Assembly: GCA_964244115.1 (NCBI GenBank)
Contig: CAXTHM010000014.1
Span: 330-64,329, forward strand
Reading direction: 5' to 3'
Length of the DNA: 64,000 nt
Source of the DNA: an uncultured Thermomicrobiales bacterium
GTDB taxonomy: Bacteria > Chloroflexota > Chloroflexia > Thermomicrobiales > UBA6265
Part shown: one piece after another, positions 2,640 through 40,508 of the stretch
How positions within the stretch are numbered: the first letter of the stretch is position 1
Layout of the letters: each line of letters begins with the position of its first letter
Notes under the pieces: model-generated
Databases searched by the model: none
Told to the model about the DNA's origin: nothing
What the model saw: only the letters and a program-made list of their open reading frames with translations
Program-made: the position numbers and the translations under genes

Positions 2640-3151
2640 GGGGACAGACCTTTCCGGGACACGAACGACGGAGAGACGGCGTGAGCTGGTGCGTCCGATC
2701 GTCGACGAGGAGCAGTCCCATCCGTGTTCTCCGGTGTCCGTGCCGCGGCCCGGTCCGCCGATCTGGCGCCGTCCGCTGGCTGGCGTGGTGAGACGAGAGC
2801 GGCGCGCGCCGCGGCGCCCCGGCTGCCGAGAAGACGCCCCGGGCGTCCATCTGGTTCCCGGTCATCGGCTCGGCGAGGCGTCGATGTTATCGCGTGATGG
2901 GCGGTGCGATCGACCCGACCGTGTGCCAGCGTGCCCGACCCCCTCACCTCCCGACCGGTTGTTCACAGGCGAATCGGACGGCACCGGACCATCGATGGGA
3001 GATCGACCTGACCCATTCCAGCCCCAGCCGCAACGTGTCATGGCCTCGGCGCGGTCTCCACGGCACTGTTGTTGCCACGGGGACGGAGATGATCCTGCCC
3101 CGGACCCGGTTGCCAGACGCCCAATGGCCCTGACGGTCGCCGCAGGCGTGC

Positions 3152-4528
3152 GTGTCCGACTCCCCGCCTCAGCCCGGAAGGAGCCCTGTGTCCTCGACGT
3201 TCACGACCTGGTACATGATCGTCGGGGTGCTCTTCATCACGATGGCGCTGAGCGGCTCGATCCTGAAGCGGCTGCCACTGACGACCTCGATCCTCTACCT
3301 CCTGATCGGTCTGGCGCTCGGGTCGGCCGGGGCCGGGTTCATCGACCTCGACGTGATCGCCGATGCGGCCCTGCTCGAGCGGATCACCGAGATTGCGGCG
3401 ATCGTGTCGCTGTTCACCGCCGGGTTGAAGCTGCGGATCGACTGGAGCGACACCCGCTGGCGGATCCCGCTCCGGCTGGCCGTCGTCTCGATGGCGATCA
3501 CGGTCGGGCTGATCGCCATCGCCGGGTTCGTCGGGCTCGGGCTATCGCTGGGCGCGGCCGTCCTGCTCGGCGCCATCCTCGCCCCGACGGACCCGGTCCT
3601 GGCCGCCGAGGTCGCCGTCGACAGCCCGACGGACGAGGACCAGCTCCGGCTGGGGCTGACCGGCGAAGCCGGACTCAACGACGGGACCGCCTTCCCCTTC
3701 GTGATGCTCGGGCTCGGCCTGCTCGGGCTGCACGACCTCGGGTCGTTCGGCTGGCGCTGGCTGGCGGTCGATCTGGTCTGGGCGTCGCTGGGCGGCATCG
3801 CGGTCGGCGTGCTGCTCGGGACGCTGGTCGGCTCCCTGGTGCTCTACCTGCGCCGCGTGCACCGGGAGGCGGTCGGGCTGGACGAGTTCCTGACGCTGGG
3901 GCTGATCGCGATGTCGTACGGCGGCGCCCTGCTGATCCACACGTATGGCTTCCTCGCCGTCTTCGCGGCCGGGCTGGCGCTGCGCCGGGTCGAGCGGCGC
4001 CTGACCCCGGGCGACTTCGAGGAGGTGATCGAGGAGGTCGTCACGGGGCGCGAGGAGGACATCCAGACCCGGAGCGAGACCGCCCCGGCCCACATGCTGG
4101 CGGCCGTCCTCGGCTTCAACGAGCGGCTGGAGCGGATCGGCGAGCTGGCGGTCGTGCTCCTGATCGGTGGGCTGCTGTCCGTCGCGCTGCTGCCGGTCGA
4201 GGCGCTGTGGTTCGTCCCGCTCCTGTTCCTCGTCATCCGGCCGGTGAGCGTCTGGCTGGGGCTCCTGCGCGCCCCGACCACCCAGACCCAGCGGCACTAC
4301 ATCGCATGGTTCGGCATCCGCGGGGTCGGGGCGATCTACTACCTGACGTACGCGATCGAGCACGGGCTGTCGGACGGGGACGCCGAGGTGCTGACCGCCA
4401 TCGTCCTGACCGTCGTCGCGATCTCGATCGTCGTCCACGGGATCTCGGTCACGCCCCTGATGGCTCGCTACGAGCGGCAGGGCCGGTGGCGGGCCGCAGA
4501 GGGCGTCCGCATCCGGACCGATCCATGA
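3152..4528 (+). CDS. cation:proton antiporter (Na+/H+ exchanger family, CPA1-like)
   Basis: Polytopic membrane protein. Motifs LGAILAPTDPVLAAEV and GEAGLNDGTAFPF are typical of Na_H_Exchanger proteins. Non-ATG start in the track. Confidence 0.8.
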   Translation: MSDSPPQPGRSPVSSTFTTWYMIVGVLFITMALSGSILKRLPLTTSILYLLIGLALGSAGAGFIDLDVIADAALLERITEIAAIVSLFTAGLKLRIDWSDTRWRIPLRLAVVSMAITVGLIAIAGFVGLGLSLGAAVLLGAILAPTDPVLAAEVAVDSPTDEDQLRLGLTGEAGLNDGTAFPFVMLGLGLLGLHDLGSFGWRWLAVDLVWASLGGIAVGVLLGTLVGSLVLYLRRVHREAVGLDEFLTLGLIAMSYGGALLIHTYGFLAVFAAGLALRRVERRLTPGDFEEVIEEVVTGREEDIQTRSETAPAHMLAAVLGFNERLERIGELAVVLLIGGLLSVALLPVEALWFVPLLFLVIRPVSVWLGLLRAPTTQTQRHYIAWFGIRGVGAIYYLTYAIEHGLSDGDAEVLTAIVLTVVAISIVVHGISVTPLMARYERQGRWRAAEGVRIRTDP

Positions 4529-6374: not shown

Positions 6375-6675
6375 CGATCCTTCTGGGCGCTGGGCGTCAC
6401 GGTCGCCAGGATTGTAGTCATCCGGTCAGTCAGGCGCTATGCCTGGACGGACCGGCGCCTGGATCGTGTCGATCCTCGTGTCCGGCCCGATCGCGGGCCC
6501 CGATCCGTCGCCAGCCCATGCTCCGGCCAGCCAGAGGTCGGGCCGCTCGGGCCGCATCCGCCATCGACCGGCGGATCGGCGCGTGCGATACCCTTCTTCG
6601 AGCCGACCGTTCGATGTCGATCGTCCCGCCAGGCGGCGGGCACCGGCACCGACTCGATTGAGGGAGCACATCACC

Positions 6676-7662
6676 ATGGCAGGTATGACGTTCGGGGTCT
6701 TCCCCCCGCAGGGCTGGAAGATGGATCTGACCCAGATCGCGGACCCGGTCGAGCAGTTCGAGGCCATGACCAGCGTCGCGAAGGTGGCCGACGAGGGGCC
6801 GTGGGACAGCATCTGGGTGTTCGACCACTTCCACACCGTCCCGCACCCGACCATGAACACGGTCTTCGAGTCCTGGACGATCTCGGCGACGCTCGCCCGC
6901 GACACCAAGCGGGTCAACGTCGGCCAGATGGTCAACTGCAACGGCTACCGCAACCCCTCGCTGTTCGCCAAGATCGCCTCGACGGTCGACGTCGCCAGCC
7001 ACGGCCGGCTCTACGCCGGCTACGGTGCCGGCTGGTACGAGCACGAGTGGAAGGCGTACGGCTACGGCTTCCCCGAGACCCGCGACCGGATGCGGGCCTT
7101 CCGCGAGGGCGTCGAGATCATCCACAAGATGTGGACGGAGGACAAGCCGACCTTCACGGGCGAGTACTACACAATCGACGGGCCGATCAACGAGCCGAAG
7201 AGCGCGAAGCCGGGCCGCAAGATCCCCCTCTGGATCGGCGGCGGCGGCGAGAAGGTCACGCTCAAGCTGGTCGCCCAGTACGGTGACGCCTGCAACGTCG
7301 GCGGCGGCAACGCGGCCACGATCCGGGAGAAGCTGGAGATCCTGCAGGGGCACTGCGAGACGGTCGGCCGCGACTACGGCGAGATCGTCCGCTCGACCGG
7401 CTTCAACGTCTACCCGGTCGCGGCCGGCGAAGACCCGGTGACGAAGACGGCGACGCTGCGCGAGTCGATGGGCAACATGTCCTGGGAGGACTTCTCCAAG
7501 GACAACCACGTCGGCACGGTGGACGTCATCGCGGAGCGCATTCAGGCCGGAATCGAGGCCGGCGCCGACTACGGGATCATCTACATCCCCGGCCTGGCCT
7601 ACGACATCGACCTGCTCCACATGTTCGAGGAGGGCGTCATCGCCCCGCTCGCCAACAGCTGA
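6676..7662 (+). CDS. LLM-class (luciferase-like) F420/flavin-dependent oxidoreductase
   Basis: MAGMTFGVFPPQGW...DSIWVFDHFHTVPHP...GYGAGWYEHEWKAYGY...PLWIGGGGEKVTLKLVAQYGD. ATG at 6676 chosen inside track ORF 6439..7662; the upstream part is Arg/Pro junk. Confidence 0.8.
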   Translation: MAGMTFGVFPPQGWKMDLTQIADPVEQFEAMTSVAKVADEGPWDSIWVFDHFHTVPHPTMNTVFESWTISATLARDTKRVNVGQMVNCNGYRNPSLFAKIASTVDVASHGRLYAGYGAGWYEHEWKAYGYGFPETRDRMRAFREGVEIIHKMWTEDKPTFTGEYYTIDGPINEPKSAKPGRKIPLWIGGGGEKVTLKLVAQYGDACNVGGGNAATIREKLEILQGHCETVGRDYGEIVRSTGFNVYPVAAGEDPVTKTATLRESMGNMSWEDFSKDNHVGTVDVIAERIQAGIEAGADYGIIYIPGLAYDIDLLHMFEEGVIAPLANS

Positions 7663-33281: not shown

Positions 33282-33459
33282 GGAGCGCTCGCTTCATGGA
33301 GTCCGTCCGGGAGAGAAGCGCAGTCCTGGAGGCGATCACCGCAACAGCACCGCCCGGCCCATCCGGCCCGTGGATACATCGACCGGCAGCCCCTATCATT
33401 GTCCGCACGCCTGTTCGCGTCGTTCCCACAGCCCCTCGCCCGAAGGAGACTGGCCCGCG

Positions 33460-34704
33460 ATGCCGCCCCCGGTCGCCTTCCTGCCCTCTACCGAATCGAT
33501 CGCCCCCGACCCCGCCGACCGTTACGCCCGGCAGCGGCTCCTGCCGTGGTGGGACCAGGACCGGCTGGCCGCGGCGCGGGTCGTCGTCGCTGGGGCCGGC
33601 GCCGTCGGTAACGAGGCGCTCAAGCTGCTCGCCCTCGTTGGTGTGGGCGAGATCGTCGTGGTCGATTTCGACACCGTCTCGCCCTCGAACCTGAGCCGGA
33701 CCGTCCTGTTCCGGGCCGAGGACGTCGGGCAGCCCAAGGCCGCGCTGGCCGCCCGCCGGACGAGGGAGATCAACCCGGAGGTCCACGTCGCCGCGATCGA
33801 CGGGGACATCGGCCGCGACCTCGGGCTGGCAACGCTGGCTGGGGCCGACGTCGTCCTCGGCGGGCTGGACAGCATCAACGCCCGCTGGTCGCTGAACCGG
33901 CGCTGCCTCCAGGCCGGCGTCCCCTGGATCAACGCCGGGATCACCGCCTCCGATGTCCAGGTCAGCCGGCACGTCCCCGGCGAGGGCGCCTGCTACGAGT
34001 GCACCTTCACCGAGGGGATGGCGCGGCGGTTCAACGCGCGCTCCTCCTGCACCGGGCTCGTCCGCCGGACGCCGGACCGGACGGTGCCGACGACCGCGAT
34101 CGGCGCCTCGGTCGTCGCCGGGCTGATGGTCCACGACGCGCTCCGCTTCCTGCACGACCCGGCCACCGGGCTCCGGGCCGGCCAGCGCCAGACCCTCCTG
34201 CTGGATGGCTATCGCCAGTTCCTCGACGATCTGCCCGTCGACCCGGACTGCCCGGCCCACACCGACCCGGTCCGCGACTGGACCACGACCGACCGTGACC
34301 CGGCCACGACCTCGGCCCGGGCACTGGCCAGTACCGCCGGGCTGTCGGAGGCGACCTGGCTGGAGTTGACGTTCGAGCTCGTTCTGGGCTTCTCCTGCCC
34401 CGCTTGCGGCGTGACGGAGGATGTCGGGCGACCGACCGCCGCCGTCTACGAGGAGGAGATCCTCTGCCCGACCTGCCGGCAGGAACGGATCGTCGCCCGT
34501 GGCACCCGTGTCCCGCTCGACGGCCCGCTCGCCGAACGGCCCCTGGCCAGCCTCGGCGTCCCGCCGCACGATCTGGTCGCTGTCGGAATCGGCGACCGGG
34601 CCGGAACATGGCTGGAGACGGGCGGGGAGTCACCGTGGCGAACCATCCCGGACCGACCGACACAGCACCGACCCGAAACCGTACCGACAGGAGCCCAGCG
34701 ATGA
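33460..34704 (+). CDS. ThiF/MoeB-family E1-like ubiquitin-like-protein activating enzyme
   Basis: RYARQRLLPWW, Rossmann VVVAGAGAVGNEALKLLALVGVGEIVVVDFDTVSPSNLSRTVLF, CYEC, SSCTG. C-terminal extra domain with CPACG...CPTCR. GAAGGAGA RBS before ATG 33460. The stop overlaps the next start (ATGA). Confidence 0.85.
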   Translation: MPPPVAFLPSTESIAPDPADRYARQRLLPWWDQDRLAAARVVVAGAGAVGNEALKLLALVGVGEIVVVDFDTVSPSNLSRTVLFRAEDVGQPKAALAARRTREINPEVHVAAIDGDIGRDLGLATLAGADVVLGGLDSINARWSLNRRCLQAGVPWINAGITASDVQVSRHVPGEGACYECTFTEGMARRFNARSSCTGLVRRTPDRTVPTTAIGASVVAGLMVHDALRFLHDPATGLRAGQRQTLLLDGYRQFLDDLPVDPDCPAHTDPVRDWTTTDRDPATTSARALASTAGLSEATWLELTFELVLGFSCPACGVTEDVGRPTAAVYEEEILCPTCRQERIVARGTRVPLDGPLAERPLASLGVPPHDLVAVGIGDRAGTWLETGGESPWRTIPDRPTQHRPETVPTGAQR

Positions 34705-35048
34705 CCGAGCCCATCCAGCAGCCCACCCCCGGCACCCCCAACGAGATGACGCTGAACATCCGGACCGCCAATCGGGACCGCAAGGCCGAGATCGCCGTCG
34801 ACCCGACCGTGACGGTCTCGGAGATCCTCGAAGCCGCCATGCAGAACTGGGCCCTGCCGACGGACTACGACTACGTCGTCCGCAGCGACCGCCTCGGGAC
34901 CCAGCTCCGCCCCTCGGCGACGCTGATCGGCAGCGGCGTCCGCGAGGGCGACATCCTCGAGATCCAGCCGATCGCCGACGCCGGCAGCTCGGCCGGTCGG
35001 CAGGTCCTGCTCTGGCTGGACCCGGTCGGAGCCTGCCCGTGGGCGTGA
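34701..35048 (+). CDS. small ubiquitin-like (beta-grasp-sized) protein, probable precursor
   Basis: 115 aa wedged between the E1 and E2 genes with overlapping stops and starts. The ~80-aa core ends ...GDILEIQPIADAG (Gly95), followed by a 20-aa tail. The fold is inferred from size, context and pattern, not proven. Confidence 0.65.
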   Translation: MTEPIQQPTPGTPNEMTLNIRTANRDRKAEIAVDPTVTVSEILEAAMQNWALPTDYDYVVRSDRLGTQLRPSATLIGSGVREGDILEIQPIADAGSSAGRQVLLWLDPVGACPWA

Positions 35049-35566
35049 TGATCCGCCGGCGGCAGGCCGACCTCGAACGGCTCCGCGAACTGGCGGCGGC
35101 CAACCCCGGCCGGATCGAGATCGTCGCCGTCGAGGGCGAGCCCCCGACGATGATCCGCTTCCGGCTCACCTGCCAGAGCATCACCGAGCTGTCCGCATCG
35201 GGCCAGCCCACCCTCGGCGGCAGCCACCTCCTCCGGGTCCACTTCGGCCAGCGCTACCCGCTGGAGCCGCCGCTGGTCTACGTCGAGTCGCCGATCGCCA
35301 ACCCGCACGTCTTCCCGACCACCCGGCGGATCTGCATCGGCGCCGCCTGGATCCCGTCGGAGACGCTCGACCTGTTCACCCAGCGCGTCTGGGCGATCCT
35401 GGCCTGGGACCCGCAGGTGATCGACCCCGGCAGCCCGGCCAACATGACCGCGCTGAAGTGGTCCGAGGACCACCGGGACCGCCTGCCGATCGAGCCGACC
35501 CGCCTCCGGAACGCCGGGACCCTCGTGCAGGTCGACGCCAAACCGCGCCTGAGCTGGCGGGGCTAG
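35048..35566 (+). CDS. E2-like ubiquitin-conjugating enzyme (UBC fold)
   Basis: LLRVHFGQRYPLEPPLVYVESPIANPHVFPTTRRICIGAAWIPSETL matches the YPxxPP...HPN...C...W.P block of E2s. Candidate catalytic Cys96 = 35333-35335. An alternative GTG start lies at 35045. Confidence 0.8.
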   Translation: MIRRRQADLERLRELAAANPGRIEIVAVEGEPPTMIRFRLTCQSITELSASGQPTLGGSHLLRVHFGQRYPLEPPLVYVESPIANPHVFPTTRRICIGAAWIPSETLDLFTQRVWAILAWDPQVIDPGSPANMTALKWSEDHRDRLPIEPTRLRNAGTLVQVDAKPRLSWRG

Positions 35567-35596: not shown

Positions 35597-35660
35597 CGTA
35601 GGGTCACGGGCTTGCCCTGACCGGTCGCCGCAGCGGCCATCGCCCCGCAGGGCGATAATT
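35597..35660 (-). repeat. family-A repeat inserted between the E2 and JAB genes
   Basis: CGTAGGGTCACGGGCTTGCCCTGACCGGTCGCCGCAGCGGCCATCGCCCCGCAGGGCGATAATT. Confidence 0.8.
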
Positions 35661-35694
35661 ATTGGCCGGGCGGCCAGAGGCGGAGGACAGGTCG

Positions 35695-36480
35695 ATGGTC
35701 GCGTGGAAGAGCACAACCGAGTTCAGCCCGGAGCCCCTCGACCTGGCTGCCTACGCCGCGGCCCATCACCTCGCCCTGCCGGAGACGGATAACGCGATCG
35801 GGCCGACCGACCCGGTCCTCGTCATCGACCACGCCGCCTGGGAGGCGCTCTGGGACCACGCCCGGTCGGCCGACGTCGAGGTCGGCGGGCTGCTGGTCGG
35901 CGAGGTCTTTCGGGATACGGCGACTGACCGACCGGTCACGATCGTCCGGGGCGCGATCCCGGCCATTGGCGGAGCGTCGTCCGCCGTCAGCTTCACCTTC
36001 ACGCCGGACGCGTGGGACCACCTCACCGCCGCGCGTGACCACTCGTGGCCGGAGCTGATCACCGTCGGCTGGTTCCACACCCACCCCAACCTCGGCGTCT
36101 TCTACTCTGGGACCGACCGCAACACGCAGCACGCCTTCTTCAACCGCCCCTGGAACGTCGGTATCGTCGTCGACCCGCTGGCGCTCTCGGATCAGGTCGG
36201 GCTGTTCGTCGGCGCCCACAGTCGCCGCATCCCGGCCTCGGACCTCGTCGTCGCACCGGAGCTGATTGCCGTCGCACGGCAGCCGGTCGCCGGTGCACGG
36301 GTGCCCGCCGCGCCGGTCCCGGAGCCGATCCGTCCCGTCCCGACGCCGATCCGCCCGACGATCCGCACCGTCTGGGACACCTACGGCTCGCGAGTCGCGG
36401 CGGCGGCGGCCGGAGCGGCAGTCGCCGTCGTGGCGGTGGCCGCGACCGAATGGGTCCGCTCGCAGCGCAGGGAACCGTAG
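35695..36480 (+). CDS. JAB/MPN+ (JAMM) metalloprotease with Pro-rich linker and hydrophobic C-terminal segment
   Basis: VEVGGLLVGE (Glu) and GWFHTHPNLGVFYSGTD, an exact HxHx7SxxD at 36076-36117. C-terminus: ...PVPEPIRPVPTPIRP...RVAAAAAGAAVAVVAVAATEWVRSQRREP. GGAGGA RBS before ATG 35695. Confidence 0.85.
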   Translation: MVAWKSTTEFSPEPLDLAAYAAAHHLALPETDNAIGPTDPVLVIDHAAWEALWDHARSADVEVGGLLVGEVFRDTATDRPVTIVRGAIPAIGGASSAVSFTFTPDAWDHLTAARDHSWPELITVGWFHTHPNLGVFYSGTDRNTQHAFFNRPWNVGIVVDPLALSDQVGLFVGAHSRRIPASDLVVAPELIAVARQPVAGARVPAAPVPEPIRPVPTPIRPTIRTVWDTYGSRVAAAAAGAAVAVVAVAATEWVRSQRREP

Positions 36481-37521
36481 ATGAGCGAGCGCGCCGAGCA
36501 GATCTCCTATCTGCAACGCCTGATCGACCGGATGACCGGCCGGTCGGCGGCGGCACACGAGGCGGCCAGTGAACCCGCCCATCTGCTCACGCCCGACCCG
36601 CGCGAGTCCCAGCAGCGCCACGGCGACCGGCCCCGGACACCCGGCTCCCGCCCACCATCCCGAACGCCGGCGTCAACGCCGAGAGCGCTGGAATCCCGCA
36701 CGCCGGAGCGCATGGCCCGGCCGACCCCGTCGACGATCTCGTGGGGCGGGGCGGCGGGTCCGTCCGTGCTCGACGACCCGCTCCACTTCATCGGCCAGAC
36801 AGACCCGCTCGAAGGGACCGCCCTGCTGGCCGGGGAGCAGGTCTCGGTCTGCACCCGCTGCGGCGCGGCCTATCACCTCGCGACGATGAGCTTCATCCGC
36901 GGCGCGACCGGCGGCGCCTGCGTCAGTTGCGGCACCGCCGGGCTGTTCCAGACCCTGACGCTGGAGGCCGGCGCCCAGACCATCGCCGCCCCGCCACCGC
37001 CGGTCATCACGATCCCGGTCGCGAACGAGCGCAAACCCATCCGTCCGACCCCTACCGCCGCGCCGCCCCGTGACGCCGCCGGCCGGCCGATCATCCAGCT
37101 CCATCAGGTCCGCGACCACATCGGCGAGGAGGTCGCCTTCGAGGGCCGCGTCCTCCGGGTCCATCTCACCGGCGGCGGGGCCTACTTCCTCTACTTCGAG
37201 CGGGCGGCCCGGGTGCTCGACGGCTTCCGGGCCGTGATCCGGCCGCGGGACATCTTCCACTGGGAGATCGAGGGGCTCGTCCCGCCCGACGCCTACCCGG
37301 ACCAGTGGGTCCGGATCGCGGGGCGGATCGTCGACGACCCGCGCTGGCAACTGGAGATCCTGATCCAGCGGCCGGAGTCGATCCAGATCCTCGACGGCCC
37401 GACCGAGTCGGCCGGCTGGCGCCCGGACGACGGGCTGATCCCGGACATCCCGGCCCCGCTGCTGTCCGACGCCCCGGCCATGAAGTCGGAACCAGCCGCC
37501 CGGGTCCGCTGGCTGGATTGA
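36481..37521 (+). CDS. Zn-ribbon plus OB-fold-like protein of unknown function (candidate adaptor/E3-like/target)
   Basis: The start abuts the JAB stop (TAGATG). Disordered P/R/S-rich N-terminal third. CTRCGAAYH...CVSCG (C124, C127, H132, C147, C150; 36850-36930). C-terminal pattern IIQLHQVRDHIGEEVAFEGRVLRVHLTGGGAYFLYFE...FRAVIRPRD...DQWVRIAGRIVDDPRWQLEILIQRPESIQIL is typical of OB-fold modules. Confidence 0.6.
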   Translation: MSERAEQISYLQRLIDRMTGRSAAAHEAASEPAHLLTPDPRESQQRHGDRPRTPGSRPPSRTPASTPRALESRTPERMARPTPSTISWGGAAGPSVLDDPLHFIGQTDPLEGTALLAGEQVSVCTRCGAAYHLATMSFIRGATGGACVSCGTAGLFQTLTLEAGAQTIAAPPPPVITIPVANERKPIRPTPTAAPPRDAAGRPIIQLHQVRDHIGEEVAFEGRVLRVHLTGGGAYFLYFERAARVLDGFRAVIRPRDIFHWEIEGLVPPDAYPDQWVRIAGRIVDDPRWQLEILIQRPESIQILDGPTESAGWRPDDGLIPDIPAPLLSDAPAMKSEPAARVRWLD

Positions 37522-37565: not shown

Positions 37566-38354
37566 ATGCAACCGAAACCGGCGCACCTCGAAGCACGCTA
37601 CGGCGAGCAGTTCTCCGACCAGTCGGTCGTGGACGCCTACGGGCTCCGGCCGCCCTACCCCGATGGCGTCATCGACCTACTCGCCGACCTCGCCGGTCCG
37701 ACGGGGGCCGTGCTCGACCTCGGCTGCGGGACCGGCGAGATCACCCGCCGCCTCGCCGGGCGCGTCGGCCGGATCGACGCGGTCGACCCGTCGGCGGCGA
37801 TGCTTGTCAGGGCCCGGTCGTTGCCTGGCGGGGACCAAGCGAACCTGTCCTGGATCCACGGAGCGGCCGAAGATGCTCCGTTCGACCCGCCGTACGACCT
37901 CGTCTGCGCCGCCGCCGCGCTCCACTGGATGGACTGGGCGGTCGTCCTGCCCAGAATCCGGGCGGCGCTGACCCCGTCCGGTCCGCTGGCGATCGTTGGG
38001 GACGGCGTGGCTACCGTCCCCTGGGCCGCCGACGCGCAGGTCGTGATCGATCGATATTCGACCAACCGGGATTACCGTCCCTACAATCTGCAAGCAGAAC
38101 TCGAGCAGCGCGGACTCTTCCGCGAGACCGGCCGCTACCGCTCCGAGCCGGTCCCGTTCGACCAGACGATATATGATTACGTCAACAGCTATCACGCTCG
38201 CAATGGCTTCTCCCGCGACCGGATGGACCCGGCCAAAGCCGACGCCTTCGACCGCGAGCTGACCGCCATCGTCGCCTCACACGTCACCGGCGATACCGTC
38301 CGGCTCATGGTCTTCGGCGCCATCGTCTGGGGCATCCCCGGACCCGCCGATTGA
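37566..38354 (+). CDS. class I SAM-dependent methyltransferase
   Basis: Motif I VLDLGCGTGEITRRLA, motif II RIDAVDPSAAML, post-II DLVCAAAALHWMDW. AAGGGAG RBS. Confidence 0.8.
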   Translation: MQPKPAHLEARYGEQFSDQSVVDAYGLRPPYPDGVIDLLADLAGPTGAVLDLGCGTGEITRRLAGRVGRIDAVDPSAAMLVRARSLPGGDQANLSWIHGAAEDAPFDPPYDLVCAAAALHWMDWAVVLPRIRAALTPSGPLAIVGDGVATVPWAADAQVVIDRYSTNRDYRPYNLQAELEQRGLFRETGRYRSEPVPFDQTIYDYVNSYHARNGFSRDRMDPAKADAFDRELTAIVASHVTGDTVRLMVFGAIVWGIPGPAD

Positions 38355-38450: not shown

Positions 38451-40508
38451 ATGAGCGACGACCCCACCGATCCCCAGGACGACAGCGCGACCGGCGCCGA
38501 GCCGGAACTGTCCAACAACGACGGCGGCATCGGCCGTCCGCCACCCCGAACCCCGCGCCCGCCCCGCCTCGACGAGCGTCGCGGCGGCCTACGCGGACCC
38601 AATGGCCGGATCATCCCGCCGGGCGGCTCCGGGCCGGGCCGGAATGGCCCCCCGGTCCCGACCGTCCGCTTCCTCACCGGGCAGGGTCAGGCCGACGGCG
38701 ACCGGACCGAGCGCGAGGGCGACGAGCCCGACGAGCCGACCAGCACGACGCCGCTGCTCGATGCGGCGGGCCGCGACCTGACCGCCCTGGCCCGAGCCGG
38801 CGAGCTACCGGACATCGTCGGCCGCGACCCCCAGATCCTCCAGCTCGCCCAGACGCTGCTCCGCCATGACCGCCCCGCGCCGCTCCTGATCGGCGAGTCC
38901 GGCATCGGGCGGACGGCGATCGTCGAGGGGCTCGCCGTCCGGGCCGTCGCCGAGGGGGCCGACCCGCGGCTGGCGAAGCTCCGGATCGTCCAGCTCTCGC
39001 TCGACCAGATGGGCGGCGACGCGATGATCCGTCCCCGGATGGCGAACCGCTTCGGCGCCGTTCTGGAAGAGGTCGTCGCCCACCCGGATACGGTCCTGTT
39101 CATCGACGGGCTGCACCTGCTGCTCGGCGGGACCCCGATCGAGATCGTCCCGGCCGACGTGCTGCGCGGCTTCCTCAACCAGCACGCCGGCCAGATGATC
39201 GGCACGACGACGCCGAAGATCGCCGAGGCGATGCTGAGCCCGCAGCGCGAGCTCGCCCCGTCGCTGATGCCGATCACCGTCGGCGAGCTCTCGGAAGAGG
39301 ATGCCCGGACGCTACTGACCCGGCAGGCCGGTGCCTACGCCGCCCACCATGACGTCGAGATCGGTCCGGACGCGATCGAGGCCGCCCTCGCCCTCAGCAT
39401 CCGCTACGTCTCCCAGGGCTGGTTGCCGCGCAAGGCCAGCGAGCTGCTCGACATCGCCGCCAGCCAGCGCAGCCTGCCCCTGCTGACCGGCCGGGCGAAC
39501 GGCGAGCGTCCCGTCGTGACGCCGGAGGCGATCGCCGCCGCACTCCACGCCCGCTGGGGGATCACCGCCCCGAGCTGGGACGCCGCCCAGGAGCACAGTG
39601 AGCCGACCCCGCTGGCCGCGCCGGCGGACCTCGCCGAGCGGCTGGCCGAACGCATCCTCGGGCAGCCCGAGGCGATCGGCGCCATGACCGACGCCGTCCG
39701 CGTCGCCGCCCTCGGGCTCCGCACGACCGACCGGCCCCGGGCCGTGATGCTGTTCGGCGGCCCGACCGGCGTCGGCAAGACGGCCCTCGCCCGGAACCTG
39801 GCCTCGGCCCTGTTCGGCTCCGAAGAGGCGCTGCTCCGGATCGACATGAGCGAGTTCCAGCAGCAGCACGTCATCGCCCGGCTACTCGGGGCGCCCCCCG
39901 GCTTCGTCGGCTACAACGACGGCGGCCAGCTCTCCCGCTTCCTCCGCGCCCACCCGGAGAGCGTCATCCTGCTCGATGAGATCGAGAAGGCCCACCCGCA
40001 GGCGCTCGACATCTTCCTCCAGCTCTTCGACGCCGGCCGGATCACCGATGGCCACGGCCAGATCCTCGACGCCCGCCACGCCGTCTTCATCATGACGACC
40101 AACCTCCCGATGAGCGACAACCACGTCACCCTCCGGGCTCGGCTGCGACCGGAGTTCCTCAACCGGATCGACCGGATCGTCCAGTTCCGGGCCCTGGAAC
40201 TGGAGGACCTCGAGCGGATCGCGTTGATGCGGCTGGAGACGCTGACCGCCCAGCTCCGCGCCCGGCAGATCATCCTGCGGGTCACGCCGGACGCCCTGAC
40301 CGCCCTGGCCCGGCCGGAGTCCGACGGGCGGGCTGCCAACGGTCGCACGGTCGAGCGCCGGCTGGACCAGGAGGTGGCCGGGCGGGTCGCCGAGTGGGCC
40401 GCGCTGCTGACCGGGATGGCGCCGGGCCAGCCGGTCGTCCTGACGCTGGAGGCCACCGCGACCGGCACCCGCGTCAGCCCGCCGGGGATGCTCGACGTCA
40501 ACGCCTGA
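38451..40508 (+). CDS. ClpA/ClpB-family double-ring AAA+ ATPase with degenerate D1 and no Clp_N domain
   Basis: D1: LIGESGIGRTAIVEGLA (Walker A Lys replaced by Arg) and VLFIDGLHLLLG (Walker B DE replaced by DG). D2 is canonical: LFGGPTGVGKTALA, VILLDEIEKAHPQALDIFLQLFDAGRITDG, LLGAPPGFVGY, PEFLNRID. The first ~100 aa are G/P/R-rich. No coiled-coil M-domain and no IGF/IGL-type loop seen. Confidence 0.8.
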   Translation: MSDDPTDPQDDSATGAEPELSNNDGGIGRPPPRTPRPPRLDERRGGLRGPNGRIIPPGGSGPGRNGPPVPTVRFLTGQGQADGDRTEREGDEPDEPTSTTPLLDAAGRDLTALARAGELPDIVGRDPQILQLAQTLLRHDRPAPLLIGESGIGRTAIVEGLAVRAVAEGADPRLAKLRIVQLSLDQMGGDAMIRPRMANRFGAVLEEVVAHPDTVLFIDGLHLLLGGTPIEIVPADVLRGFLNQHAGQMIGTTTPKIAEAMLSPQRELAPSLMPITVGELSEEDARTLLTRQAGAYAAHHDVEIGPDAIEAALALSIRYVSQGWLPRKASELLDIAASQRSLPLLTGRANGERPVVTPEAIAAALHARWGITAPSWDAAQEHSEPTPLAAPADLAERLAERILGQPEAIGAMTDAVRVAALGLRTTDRPRAVMLFGGPTGVGKTALARNLASALFGSEEALLRIDMSEFQQQHVIARLLGAPPGFVGYNDGGQLSRFLRAHPESVILLDEIEKAHPQALDIFLQLFDAGRITDGHGQILDARHAVFIMTTNLPMSDNHVTLRARLRPEFLNRIDRIVQFRALELEDLERIALMRLETLTAQLRARQIILRVTPDALTALARPESDGRAANGRTVERRLDQEVAGRVAEWAALLTGMAPGQPVVLTLEATATGTRVSPPGMLDVNA

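Follow-up and report, generated by a model that had tools for sequence, protein, structure and literature searches.

A Rpn11-like JAMM protease of a Thermomicrobiales ubiquitin-like operon carries a conserved C-terminal helix that may anchor it in the membrane

In this work we analysed a 64,000-nucleotide stretch of DNA (the window) from an uncultured Thermomicrobiales bacterium of the Chloroflexota (contig CAXTHM010000014.1), and in particular a gene at 35695-36480, here called JAB, which encodes a JAMM protease of 261 residues. JAB is the fourth gene of the operon E1-Ubl-E2-JAB-X, whose genes all lie on the forward strand and also encode a ubiquitin-like protein (Ubl), E1- and E2-type enzymes and a protein that we call X. 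It is likely, although by no means certain, that JAB is an active Rpn11-like JAMM isopeptidase with a cytoplasmic catalytic domain, tethered at the inner membrane face by a C-terminal helix. The hydrophobic tail that would form this helix is conserved among homologues, and in distant ones the aligned position is occupied by clear transmembrane helices.

Results

Catalytic domain and fold of JAB

The JAB gene comprises the following parts (window coordinates).

35695-36480, forward strand: JAB gene, encoding the 261-residue JAMM protease; the translation ends TYGSRVAAAAAGAAVAVVAVAATEWVRSQRREP and is followed by the stop codon
35695-36264, forward strand: JAMM/MPN+ catalytic domain, residues 1-190 (Pfam, alignment of 25 homologues, AlphaFold2, Foldseek)
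36265-36393, forward strand: Pro-rich flexible linker (residues ~191-228) and conserved pre-helix segment 229-233, ending ...YGSR (AlphaFold2 confidence, alignment, substitution rates)
36394-36447, forward strand: predicted transmembrane or tail-anchor helix core V234-T251, VAAAAAGAAVAVVAVAAT (aligned with clear transmembrane helices of the homologues P0023 and P0024)
36448-36480, forward strand: conserved charged C-terminal tail EWVRSQRREP and stop codon TAG (consensus ..EW.R.QRR..)

The gene starts at an ATG preceded by a GGAGGA ribosome-binding site. Its N-terminal residues, MVAWKSTTEFSPEP, include the pattern MV.W, which is found in all homologues (M1 is invariant, V2 and W4 are kept in at least 90%). 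The JAMM signature E-x(n)-H-x-H-x7-S-x2-D is complete, with E62 at 35878-35880 and H128-x-H130-x7-S138-x2-D141 at 36076-36117, and these residues are invariant in 25 of 25 homologues. Two Pfam profiles are matched above threshold, Prok-JAB with 30.5 bits (cut-off 25) and JAB with 28.4 bits (cut-off 22.5). When a profile of JAB was compared with the PDB, the proteasomal PSMD14/Rpn11 (expectation value, E, 3e-16), CsRpn11 (3e-15) and also CSN5 were among the closest structures. Moreover, a Foldseek search with an AlphaFold2 (AF2) model, built from the 25-sequence alignment, returned PSMD14/Rpn11 and the Caldiarchaeum Rpn11 with E values of 1e-9 to 3e-9. In sequence and in fold, JAB belongs to the Rpn11/CsRpn11 type of Ubl proteases, and from its intact motifs we infer that it is active as an isopeptidase.

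In the model, the MPN domain extends to about residue 190, with a predicted local distance difference test score (pLDDT) mostly above 85. An earlier note, made from the sequence alone, had let the catalytic domain end near residue 170; the folded domain in fact reaches residues ~187-190. Residues 191-225 have a pLDDT below 50, and residues 226-258 form a single isolated helix.

Conservation of the C-terminal tail

The same note had described a Pro-rich linker and, at the C-terminus, a stretch of about 18 Ala, Val and Gly residues between charged residues. The translation bears out both: the linker (residues ~188-228) contains 10 Pro in 41 residues, and the stretch reads R233-VAAAAAGAAVAVVAVAAT-E252. 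The 18 uncharged residues V234-T251 (11 Ala, 5 Val, 1 Gly and 1 Thr) are thus bordered by R233 and E252, and 10 residues remain after the helix core. When the C-termini of JAB homologues were compared, as the note had proposed, the hydrophobic tail proved to be conserved and the linker to be the variable part. Among 23 full-length homologues, linkers are 25 to 53 residues long and share a mean pairwise identity of 25%, whereas the 18 columns of the tail core contain no gaps and have a pairwise identity of 54%. Apart from one distant sequence, in which two Arg are misaligned, these columns are free of charge. G240 is near-invariant and G244 is frequent, giving a GxxxG/A (small-xxx-small) pattern.

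High guanine plus cytosine (GC) content favours Ala, Val and Gly, and in a genome of 70% GC a run of GCN and GTN codons closing a disordered tail could be compositional noise without a function; the rapid evolution of the linker directly upstream would fit such an origin. We regard this explanation as very improbable, and the conservation data largely refute it. Seven homologues with an overall identity of 81-85%, that is, differing by 15-19% and with insertions and deletions in the linker, have identical tails; a near-clonal origin of these sequences is unlikely because their linkers diverge. The gap-free columns without charged residues across the 23 homologues speak against noise as well, as does the ratio of nonsynonymous to synonymous substitutions (dN/dS), which was 0.26 for the catalytic core, 0.45 for the tail and 0.82 for the linker, so that the linker has nearly twice the value of the tail (NG86 method with six orthologues, a small sample that yields approximate values at such a GC content). 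In distant relatives, the hydrophobicity is kept by other residues. Finally, among the 42 putative genes of the 70%-GC window, other runs of at least 18 residues without charge or Pro occur nearly all in membrane proteins; their hosts are proteins with multiple strongly hydrophobic windows or with a clear signal anchor, plus one small protein, and comparable runs were not seen in soluble proteins of the window. Judged by its conservation, by the identical tails, by dN/dS and by the background of the window, the tail is more than GC-driven low complexity.

A degron and a docking tail of the HbYX type were also considered. Both readings were set aside, since the very last residues vary (REP, RDG, QER, SRG) and lack hydrophobic character.

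Hydrophobicity and topology of the tail helix

The proposal of the earlier note that JAB is a tail-anchored, membrane-tethered protein is favoured by the conservation of the tail and by the transmembrane helices of homologues, although the helix of JAB itself is only marginally hydrophobic. On the Kyte-Doolittle scale, the best 19-mer of the tail has a mean of 1.91, above the usual threshold of 1.6. No other window of JAB reaches 1.6, and this one lies no more than about 30 residues from the C-terminus. The hydrophobic moment of the helix is 0.07, which indicates a uniformly hydrophobic helix and not an amphipathic surface helix. At the aligned position, the distant homologue P0023 has GLAAWALVVLFAAVAILAA followed by RARWRRERRR, with a sum of -2.1 on the Hessa biological scale, and P0024 has AILGTLGFICGLAALIIVL followed by SRT, with a sum of -2.8.

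Several observations weigh against a membrane helix in JAB. Anchors and multi-pass proteins encoded elsewhere in the window reach Kyte-Doolittle means of 2.2-3.1, clearly above the 1.91 of the tail, and the anchor of PBP2, also encoded there, has an Eisenberg mean hydrophobicity (<H>) of 0.99 against 0.70 for the tail. On the Hessa scale the 18-residue core sums to about +0.9 kcal/mol, and the best 19-mer, which takes in a flanking charge, to +3.5. The uncharged part of the helix core is short (18 residues) and rich in Ala, and the three Arg that follow the helix would need to cross the membrane in a tail anchor with a cytoplasmic N-terminus (N-in). On the Wimley-White octanol scale, the tail was not selected as the most hydrophobic segment of JAB; Ala-rich helices score poorly on that scale, and for this reason we hold the result to be a caveat and not a refutation. 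The membrane anchor is backed by comparison, short of proof. We consider it probable and go no further, because the helix is weak in the Thermomicrobiales clade and because of the three Arg behind it.

The main alternative is that the tail is a vestigial membrane span reused for helix-helix contact, with JAB being soluble or peripheral. The helix could then serve in self-association as an Ala/Gly zipper, or it could dock onto X, onto E1 or E2, or onto an AAA+ ATPase encoded further downstream. In favour of such a helix is its hydrophobicity, which is marginal beside that of true anchors encoded in the same genome, and the GxxxG/A pattern can also drive the packing of soluble helices. Moreover, neither the extracytoplasmic extension nor the membrane-anchored RING protein of its relatives has been kept in the Thermomicrobiales clade, which fits a drift off the membrane. 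However, the hydrophobic moment is near zero and leaves no polar face, and 18 uncharged residues between conserved charges are what a membrane span would look like. Clear transmembrane helices of relatives occupy the homologous position, and AF2 leaves the helix undocked from the JAB domain. A protein contact in place of an anchor seems to us unlikely, be it self-association or docking to a partner.

If the tail is a membrane anchor, the charges that flank it favour the N-in orientation: in the Thermomicrobiales clade the net charge is +3/+4 on the N side of the helix and +1 on the C side. The N-terminus of JAB, MVAWKSTTEFSPEPLD, is hydrophilic, and neither a hydrophobic window nor an RR motif was found in it by inspection of the sequence and a hydrophobicity scan. 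Tail-anchored membrane proteins without a signal sequence have been established experimentally in Streptomyces, which are also high-GC bacteria (PMC3087755), and this precedent suggests that JAB could be inserted in the same manner. The opposite topology would keep the basic C-terminus inside and export the JAB domain, which would act outside the cell. What speaks for it is the Arg cluster RSQRR directly after the helix, since in one Streptomyces tail-anchored protein Craney et al. took clusters of this kind to indicate an N-out topology (PMC3087755). Nevertheless, we find this topology hardly credible. JAB, which begins MVAWKSTTEFSPEP, has no N-terminal signal or twin-arginine translocation (Tat) motif, and a C-terminal anchor is an implausible means of exporting about 230 residues. 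In addition, its partners (the ATP-dependent E1, E2 and Ubl) are without export signals, the net charge of the N-side flank is above that of the C-side flank, and in relatives a weak match to an Ig-like domain lies after the helix and not in JAB.

Architecture of JAB relatives

A genome scan with one genome per species gave 404 loci encoding JAB relatives, of which the best 80 non-redundant ones were analysed. Almost all of these belong to the Chloroflexota (Thermomicrobiales, Ardenticatenaceae, Promineifilaceae and Anaerolineae), and the gene order E1-(Ubl)-E2-JAB is kept in nearly all of them. A strongly hydrophobic 19-mer lies about 85-110 residues after the JAMM motif in 70 of the 80 loci. 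In 58 loci the segment is followed by an extension of about 133 residues, and in 12, Thermomicrobiales included, it lies at most 30 residues from the C-terminus. The segments of distant relatives are unambiguous transmembrane helices, rich in Leu, Ile and Phe and placed about 85-105 residues behind the JAMM motif. The proteobacterial relatives count against an anchor as a general need of the enzyme, since none of the four among the 80 loci has the hydrophobic segment, and the enzyme can therefore function without the membrane. Among 1.8 billion cluster representatives searched with HMMER, the best 150 (50%-identity clusters) were classed by the position of the segment: a transmembrane-like segment is on the C side of the JAB domain in 72, on the N side in 7, and absent in 70.

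In a typical relative, the extension after the helix has a weak Ig-like (Big_7) match, as for an exported domain, which would place JAB on the cytoplasmic side; the ~133-residue extension is probably extracytoplasmic. Taken together, the distribution suggests that the anchor has been inherited within a family spread across the Chloroflexota, and that the Thermomicrobiales lost the extension and kept a weaker helix rich in Ala, Val and Gly. This clade stands apart from its relatives in having a JAB without the extension, X instead of RING genes, and a Ubl with a C-terminal extension.

A typical locus of the family (L011) encodes E1, a Ubl of 88 residues, E2, a JAB with transmembrane segment and extension, a second, soluble JAB, two Prok-RING_1 proteins, MoxR and DUF58. 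The second JAB paralogue lies directly 3' of the anchored one in many Chloroflexota loci (for instance L011 7177-8280 and L086 8985-10070). Its N-terminal region is acidic and a hydrophobic segment is missing, so that such systems would pair a tethered JAMM protease with a soluble one. The two Prok-RING_1 genes of L011 (8402-9379 and 9417-11740) lie 3' of the JAB genes, and the second encodes C-terminal transmembrane helices; matches to Prok-RING_1 in sister loci have E values of 3e-7 and 5e-11. A RING-like protein with a following transmembrane-like segment is encoded downstream in 40 of the 57 loci with enough downstream DNA, as judged by a relaxed RING pattern (a strict pattern, which misses the membrane-anchored type, gave 0 loci).

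Two further observations concern these loci. L011 carries a gene for a CAP/SCP-domain protein upstream of E1 (3070-3636), and its gene set is like that of the Ubl systems with links to vWA and MoxR described by Kaur et al. in 2020 (PMC7159879). In the distant operon of L086, a PemK-family toxin gene lies on the opposite strand between E1 and Ubl (6472-6813, reverse strand).

Other genes of the operon

The remaining genes of the operon, and the two that follow it, are listed here.

33460-34704, forward strand: E1-like adenylating enzyme of 414 residues (Pfam ThiF, E 9e-54)
34701-35048, forward strand: Ubl precursor of 115 residues with a beta-grasp domain (weak Pfam YukD match, E 7e-5)
35039-35566, forward strand: E2 with UBC fold (Pfam UQ_con, E 1e-5, under the cut-off; UBE2D3 is the closest solved relative)
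36481-37521, forward strand: X, 346 residues (AF2 model, alignment, Foldseek)
37566-38354, forward strand: class I S-adenosylmethionine methyltransferase (Pfam Methyltransf_25, E 4e-18)
38451-40508, forward strand: ClpB/ClpC-like double AAA+ ATPase (Pfam AAA_2, E 9e-45; AAA_lid_9; ClpB_D2-small)

The E1 gene starts at ATG 33460, which has an AAGGAGA ribosome-binding site. Its product has a single ThiF domain and a C-terminal CxxC...CxxC region; the closest solved relatives are UBA7, UBA1, MccB and ThiF, and the alignment is to one adenylation domain only. About 60 nucleotides 5' of the E1 start, at 33371-33399, there is a sigma-70-like match, TGGATA-17-TATCAT, a candidate for the promoter of the operon; two such matches occur in 5.8 kb, where 0.2 are expected. 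An AT-only patch of 10 bases, GATAATTATT (35650-35662), in the 128-nucleotide spacer between E2 and JAB, in a region of 72% GC, was considered as an internal promoter and rejected, being unconserved in five orthologous spacers and not called by a promoter scan.

The TGA stop codon of E1 overlaps the ATG of Ubl (ATGA). The assignment of this gene, which has only a weak YukD match, may be set beside that of its 88-residue orthologue in L011, which matches YukD with an E value of 1e-12. Ala94-Gly95 is invariant in the Ubl and is followed by a 20-residue extension, SSAGRQVLLWLDPVGACPWA. The extension is 15-22 residues long in the Thermomicrobiales clade and was seen outside it in two loci only; most other Chloroflexota Ubl proteins have 88 residues and terminate exactly in the residues ...TAG. 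Since the extension sits after the Gly, it must be removed before activation, and we propose the tethered JAB as the protease that matures the precursor. This role is probable by analogy with the JAB proteases CsRpn11, BilC and BubC, which mature the Ubl precursors of Caldiarchaeum (PMC6043591) and of the Bil and Bub systems (PMC11601596). The region of the extension (residues 94-115, 34980-35048) also has a conserved ..WLDP....PWA pattern. Being specific to the clade yet conserved, the extension may be more than a simple pro-peptide.

The E2 gene probably starts at GTG 35039 (homologues begin MGVI..), with ATG 35048 as the alternative, and overlaps the end of the Ubl gene. The catalytic Cys of E2, in RICIG, is invariant in the alignment with UBE2D3 and orthologues. 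In the Thermomicrobiales the canonical 'HPN' triad reads 'NPH' (residues ~84-96, ANPHVF...RICIG), while the E2 proteins of sister Chloroflexota retain FHPNI...VCIG.

The TAG stop codon of JAB abuts the ATG of X, which is translationally coupled to the JAB gene. From its N-terminus, X has a helix, a single-zinc module and, at residues ~196-305, a barrel with an OB fold; disordered regions precede and follow the zinc module. The zinc module comprises C124, C127, H132, C147 and C150 (CxxCGxxYH...CxxC), and it resembles a degenerate prokaryotic RING. It remains below the threshold of Prok-RING_1, with 14-19 bits against 29.1 (E 0.0012 on a fragment), and keeps one zinc site. The OB fold is matched by Foldseek to the anticodon-binding OB domains of Asp-, Asn- and Lys-tRNA synthetases (E ~2e-6), and a C-terminal RVRW motif is conserved (R-x-R-W is invariant). 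The family of X has 17 members, with the Thermomicrobiales as the sole named taxon. X may be an E3-like adaptor, a substrate or a nucleic-acid binder. As a transmembrane partner it was rejected, for it has no hydrophobic window; in the Thermomicrobiales clade, JAB is therefore the only component of the operon with a membrane-type segment.

Chromosomal neighbourhood

The methyltransferase gene lies between X and the AAA+ gene. It is present in L002 and L084 and absent from L001; because of this patchy occurrence among orthologous loci, it is probably not a core component of the operon. All Thermomicrobiales loci of sufficient length have the AAA+ gene shortly after the operon, and L001 has it directly 3' of X. 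The N-terminus of the ATPase is rich in Pro and Gly, in place of a Clp_N domain. The order of genes is conserved over a larger region, comprising an MR_MLE racemase, PBP2, small genes, the operon, the methyltransferase where present, the AAA+ ATPase, two GNAT genes and a racemase, in contigs whose JAB proteins are 52-77% identical. Such a neighbourhood points to a resident chromosomal locus rather than to a mobile defence island. Toxin-antitoxin genes of the HepT/MNT type, a nucleotidyltransferase with HepT, lie between MR_MLE and PBP2 in some of these loci, fused in L001 (601-1260) and split in L084 (736-1438).

Discussion

According to the reading that we prefer, a single C-terminal helix, from V234 to about V254, would hold JAB at the inner membrane face, and the disordered Pro-rich linker of about 40 residues would give the catalytic domain reach along the membrane surface. 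JAB would cut the Ubl precursor after Gly95; the exposed Gly would be adenylated by E1 and the Ubl taken onto Cys96 of E2; conjugation to substrates, possibly guided by X, would follow, and the same JAB could reverse it. With JAB tethered through such a linker, both the maturation and the removal of the Ubl would be biased to the membrane surface. The GxxxG/A motif of the tail may pack on another membrane helix, and in most members of the family the RING-type E3 of the operon would also be membrane-anchored.

To date, bacterial Ubl conjugation has been characterised in soluble and mobile anti-phage operons (CBASS Cap2/Cap3, Bil and Bub). In contrast, we describe here a Rpn11-like deconjugase with a putative anchor conserved across a phylum, encoded in an operon that in this lineage behaves like a stable part of the chromosome. 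Should the anchor prove real, the operon would be a simple and testable case of spatial control over Ubl maturation and removal in bacteria. Membrane-proximal substrates would be implied, which bears on the age of compartment-specific ubiquitin signalling. The practical gain is modest: annotation pipelines name the protein 'Mov34/MPN/PAD-1 family' only, and to this the putative anchor, the linker and the assignment to an operon are added here.

A broader idea, which we offer as speculation and think improbable, is that the E1-Ubl-E2-RING-JAB module is a vertically inherited, membrane-organised Ubl system of the Chloroflexota, as opposed to a mobile defence system, and that it tags membrane proteins or proteins associated with the envelope, as a bacterial functional analogue of endoplasmic-reticulum-associated degradation. 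In the Thermomicrobiales, the module would on this view have its fixed place beside PBP2, a cell-wall transpeptidase, and an AAA+ unfoldase of the ClpB type. The deconjugase, and in most lineages the E3, would be membrane-anchored and the tagged proteins extracted or turned over, while the tethered, Rpn11-like JAB would serve both for local activation of the Ubl precursor and for recycling of the Ubl.

The earlier note had viewed JAB in the frame of phage defence, beside the proteases of CBASS and Bil. That frame was dropped, as the PADLOC models gave no Bil or CBASS assignment, and the conserved chromosomal neighbourhood also speaks against it. In this set of models, Ubl and E2 matched none, JAB matched generic JAB models only (E 1e-4 or weaker), and the match of E1 to BilD was weak (E 1e-6, 25 bits) and ranked under many CBASS E1-E2 models. 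An identity of the operon with Bil or CBASS was rejected accordingly, the family models being unmatched and both the architecture of E1 and the genomic context being different. In its sequences the operon resembles those of eukaryotes and Caldiarchaeum rather than Bil or CBASS.

The BilABCD operon has the same four enzyme classes (Ubl, E2, JAB and E1), and BilC matures its Ubl and can reverse conjugation (PMC11601596). However, the E1 of Bil is a tandem IAD-AAD-CYS protein, whereas the E1 described here has 414 residues and one ThiF domain. Bil operons are genes of defence islands and the present locus is syntenic chromosomal DNA, and no membrane anchor is described for BilC in the literature searched. 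Cap3 of CBASS is likewise a JAMM isopeptidase paired with E1/E2-type enzymes, but in the operon of the window E1 and E2 are separate genes and not fused, a dedicated Ubl is present, and no CD-NTase or effector genes were found in the operon or its flanks.

The concept of placing a conjugate-removing enzyme at the membrane by a terminal hydrophobic segment is shared with BubE, whose conserved hydrophobic N- or C-terminal extensions were proposed to mediate peripheral membrane association and were explicitly not predicted to be transmembrane (PMC11601596). BubE differs from JAB in being a Ser-His protease and not a JAMM protease. Among eukaryotic deubiquitinases, USP19 and USP30 are membrane-anchored; they are cysteine proteases, not JAMM proteases.

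The operons with Prok-RING_1 (PF14446) are represented here by the sister loci of Ardenticatenaceae, Promineifilaceae and Anaerolineae, which have E1, an 88-residue Ubl, E2, JAB and two Prok-RING_1 genes, with MoxR/DUF58 adjoining; the clade of the window differs in having just a sub-threshold remnant of the RING. Prokaryotic RING-type Ubl systems, including versions linked to vWA and MoxR, have been described by the Aravind group (PMC7159879). Membrane association of such operons is not wholly new. No description of a membrane-anchored JAB in them was found in the literature searched, which included Iyer 2006, Aravind 2012, Kaur 2020, Chambers 2023, Ye 2024, Gong 2024 and a review of 2024, a scope that did not extend to the defining paper of 2011. 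That paper, by Burroughs, Iyer and Aravind, reportedly defined these prokaryotic RING-type Ubl operons. The Pfam entry of Prok-RING_1 notes that the bacterial members contain transmembrane helices.

The Ub-E1-E2-RING-Rpn11 operon of Caldiarchaeum is like the present one in its stand-alone Ubl, single-domain E1, UBC-type E2 and JAMM protease. The JAMM protease of that operon is reported to process the Ubl precursor and to remove conjugates (PMC6043591; PMC5654768). The two operons differ in that Caldiarchaeum has a RING E3, where the present operon has X with a degenerate single-zinc module and an OB fold, and the Ubl encoded here ends in AG, not GG, and scores as YukD-like. To our knowledge, CsRpn11 is soluble and has no C-terminal linker or hydrophobic helix. 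In its catalytic domain the resemblance is close, CsRpn11 of Caldiarchaeum subterraneum (PDB 6FJV/6FNN) being among the best matches of JAB in sequence and in fold, beside eukaryotic Rpn11/PSMD14.

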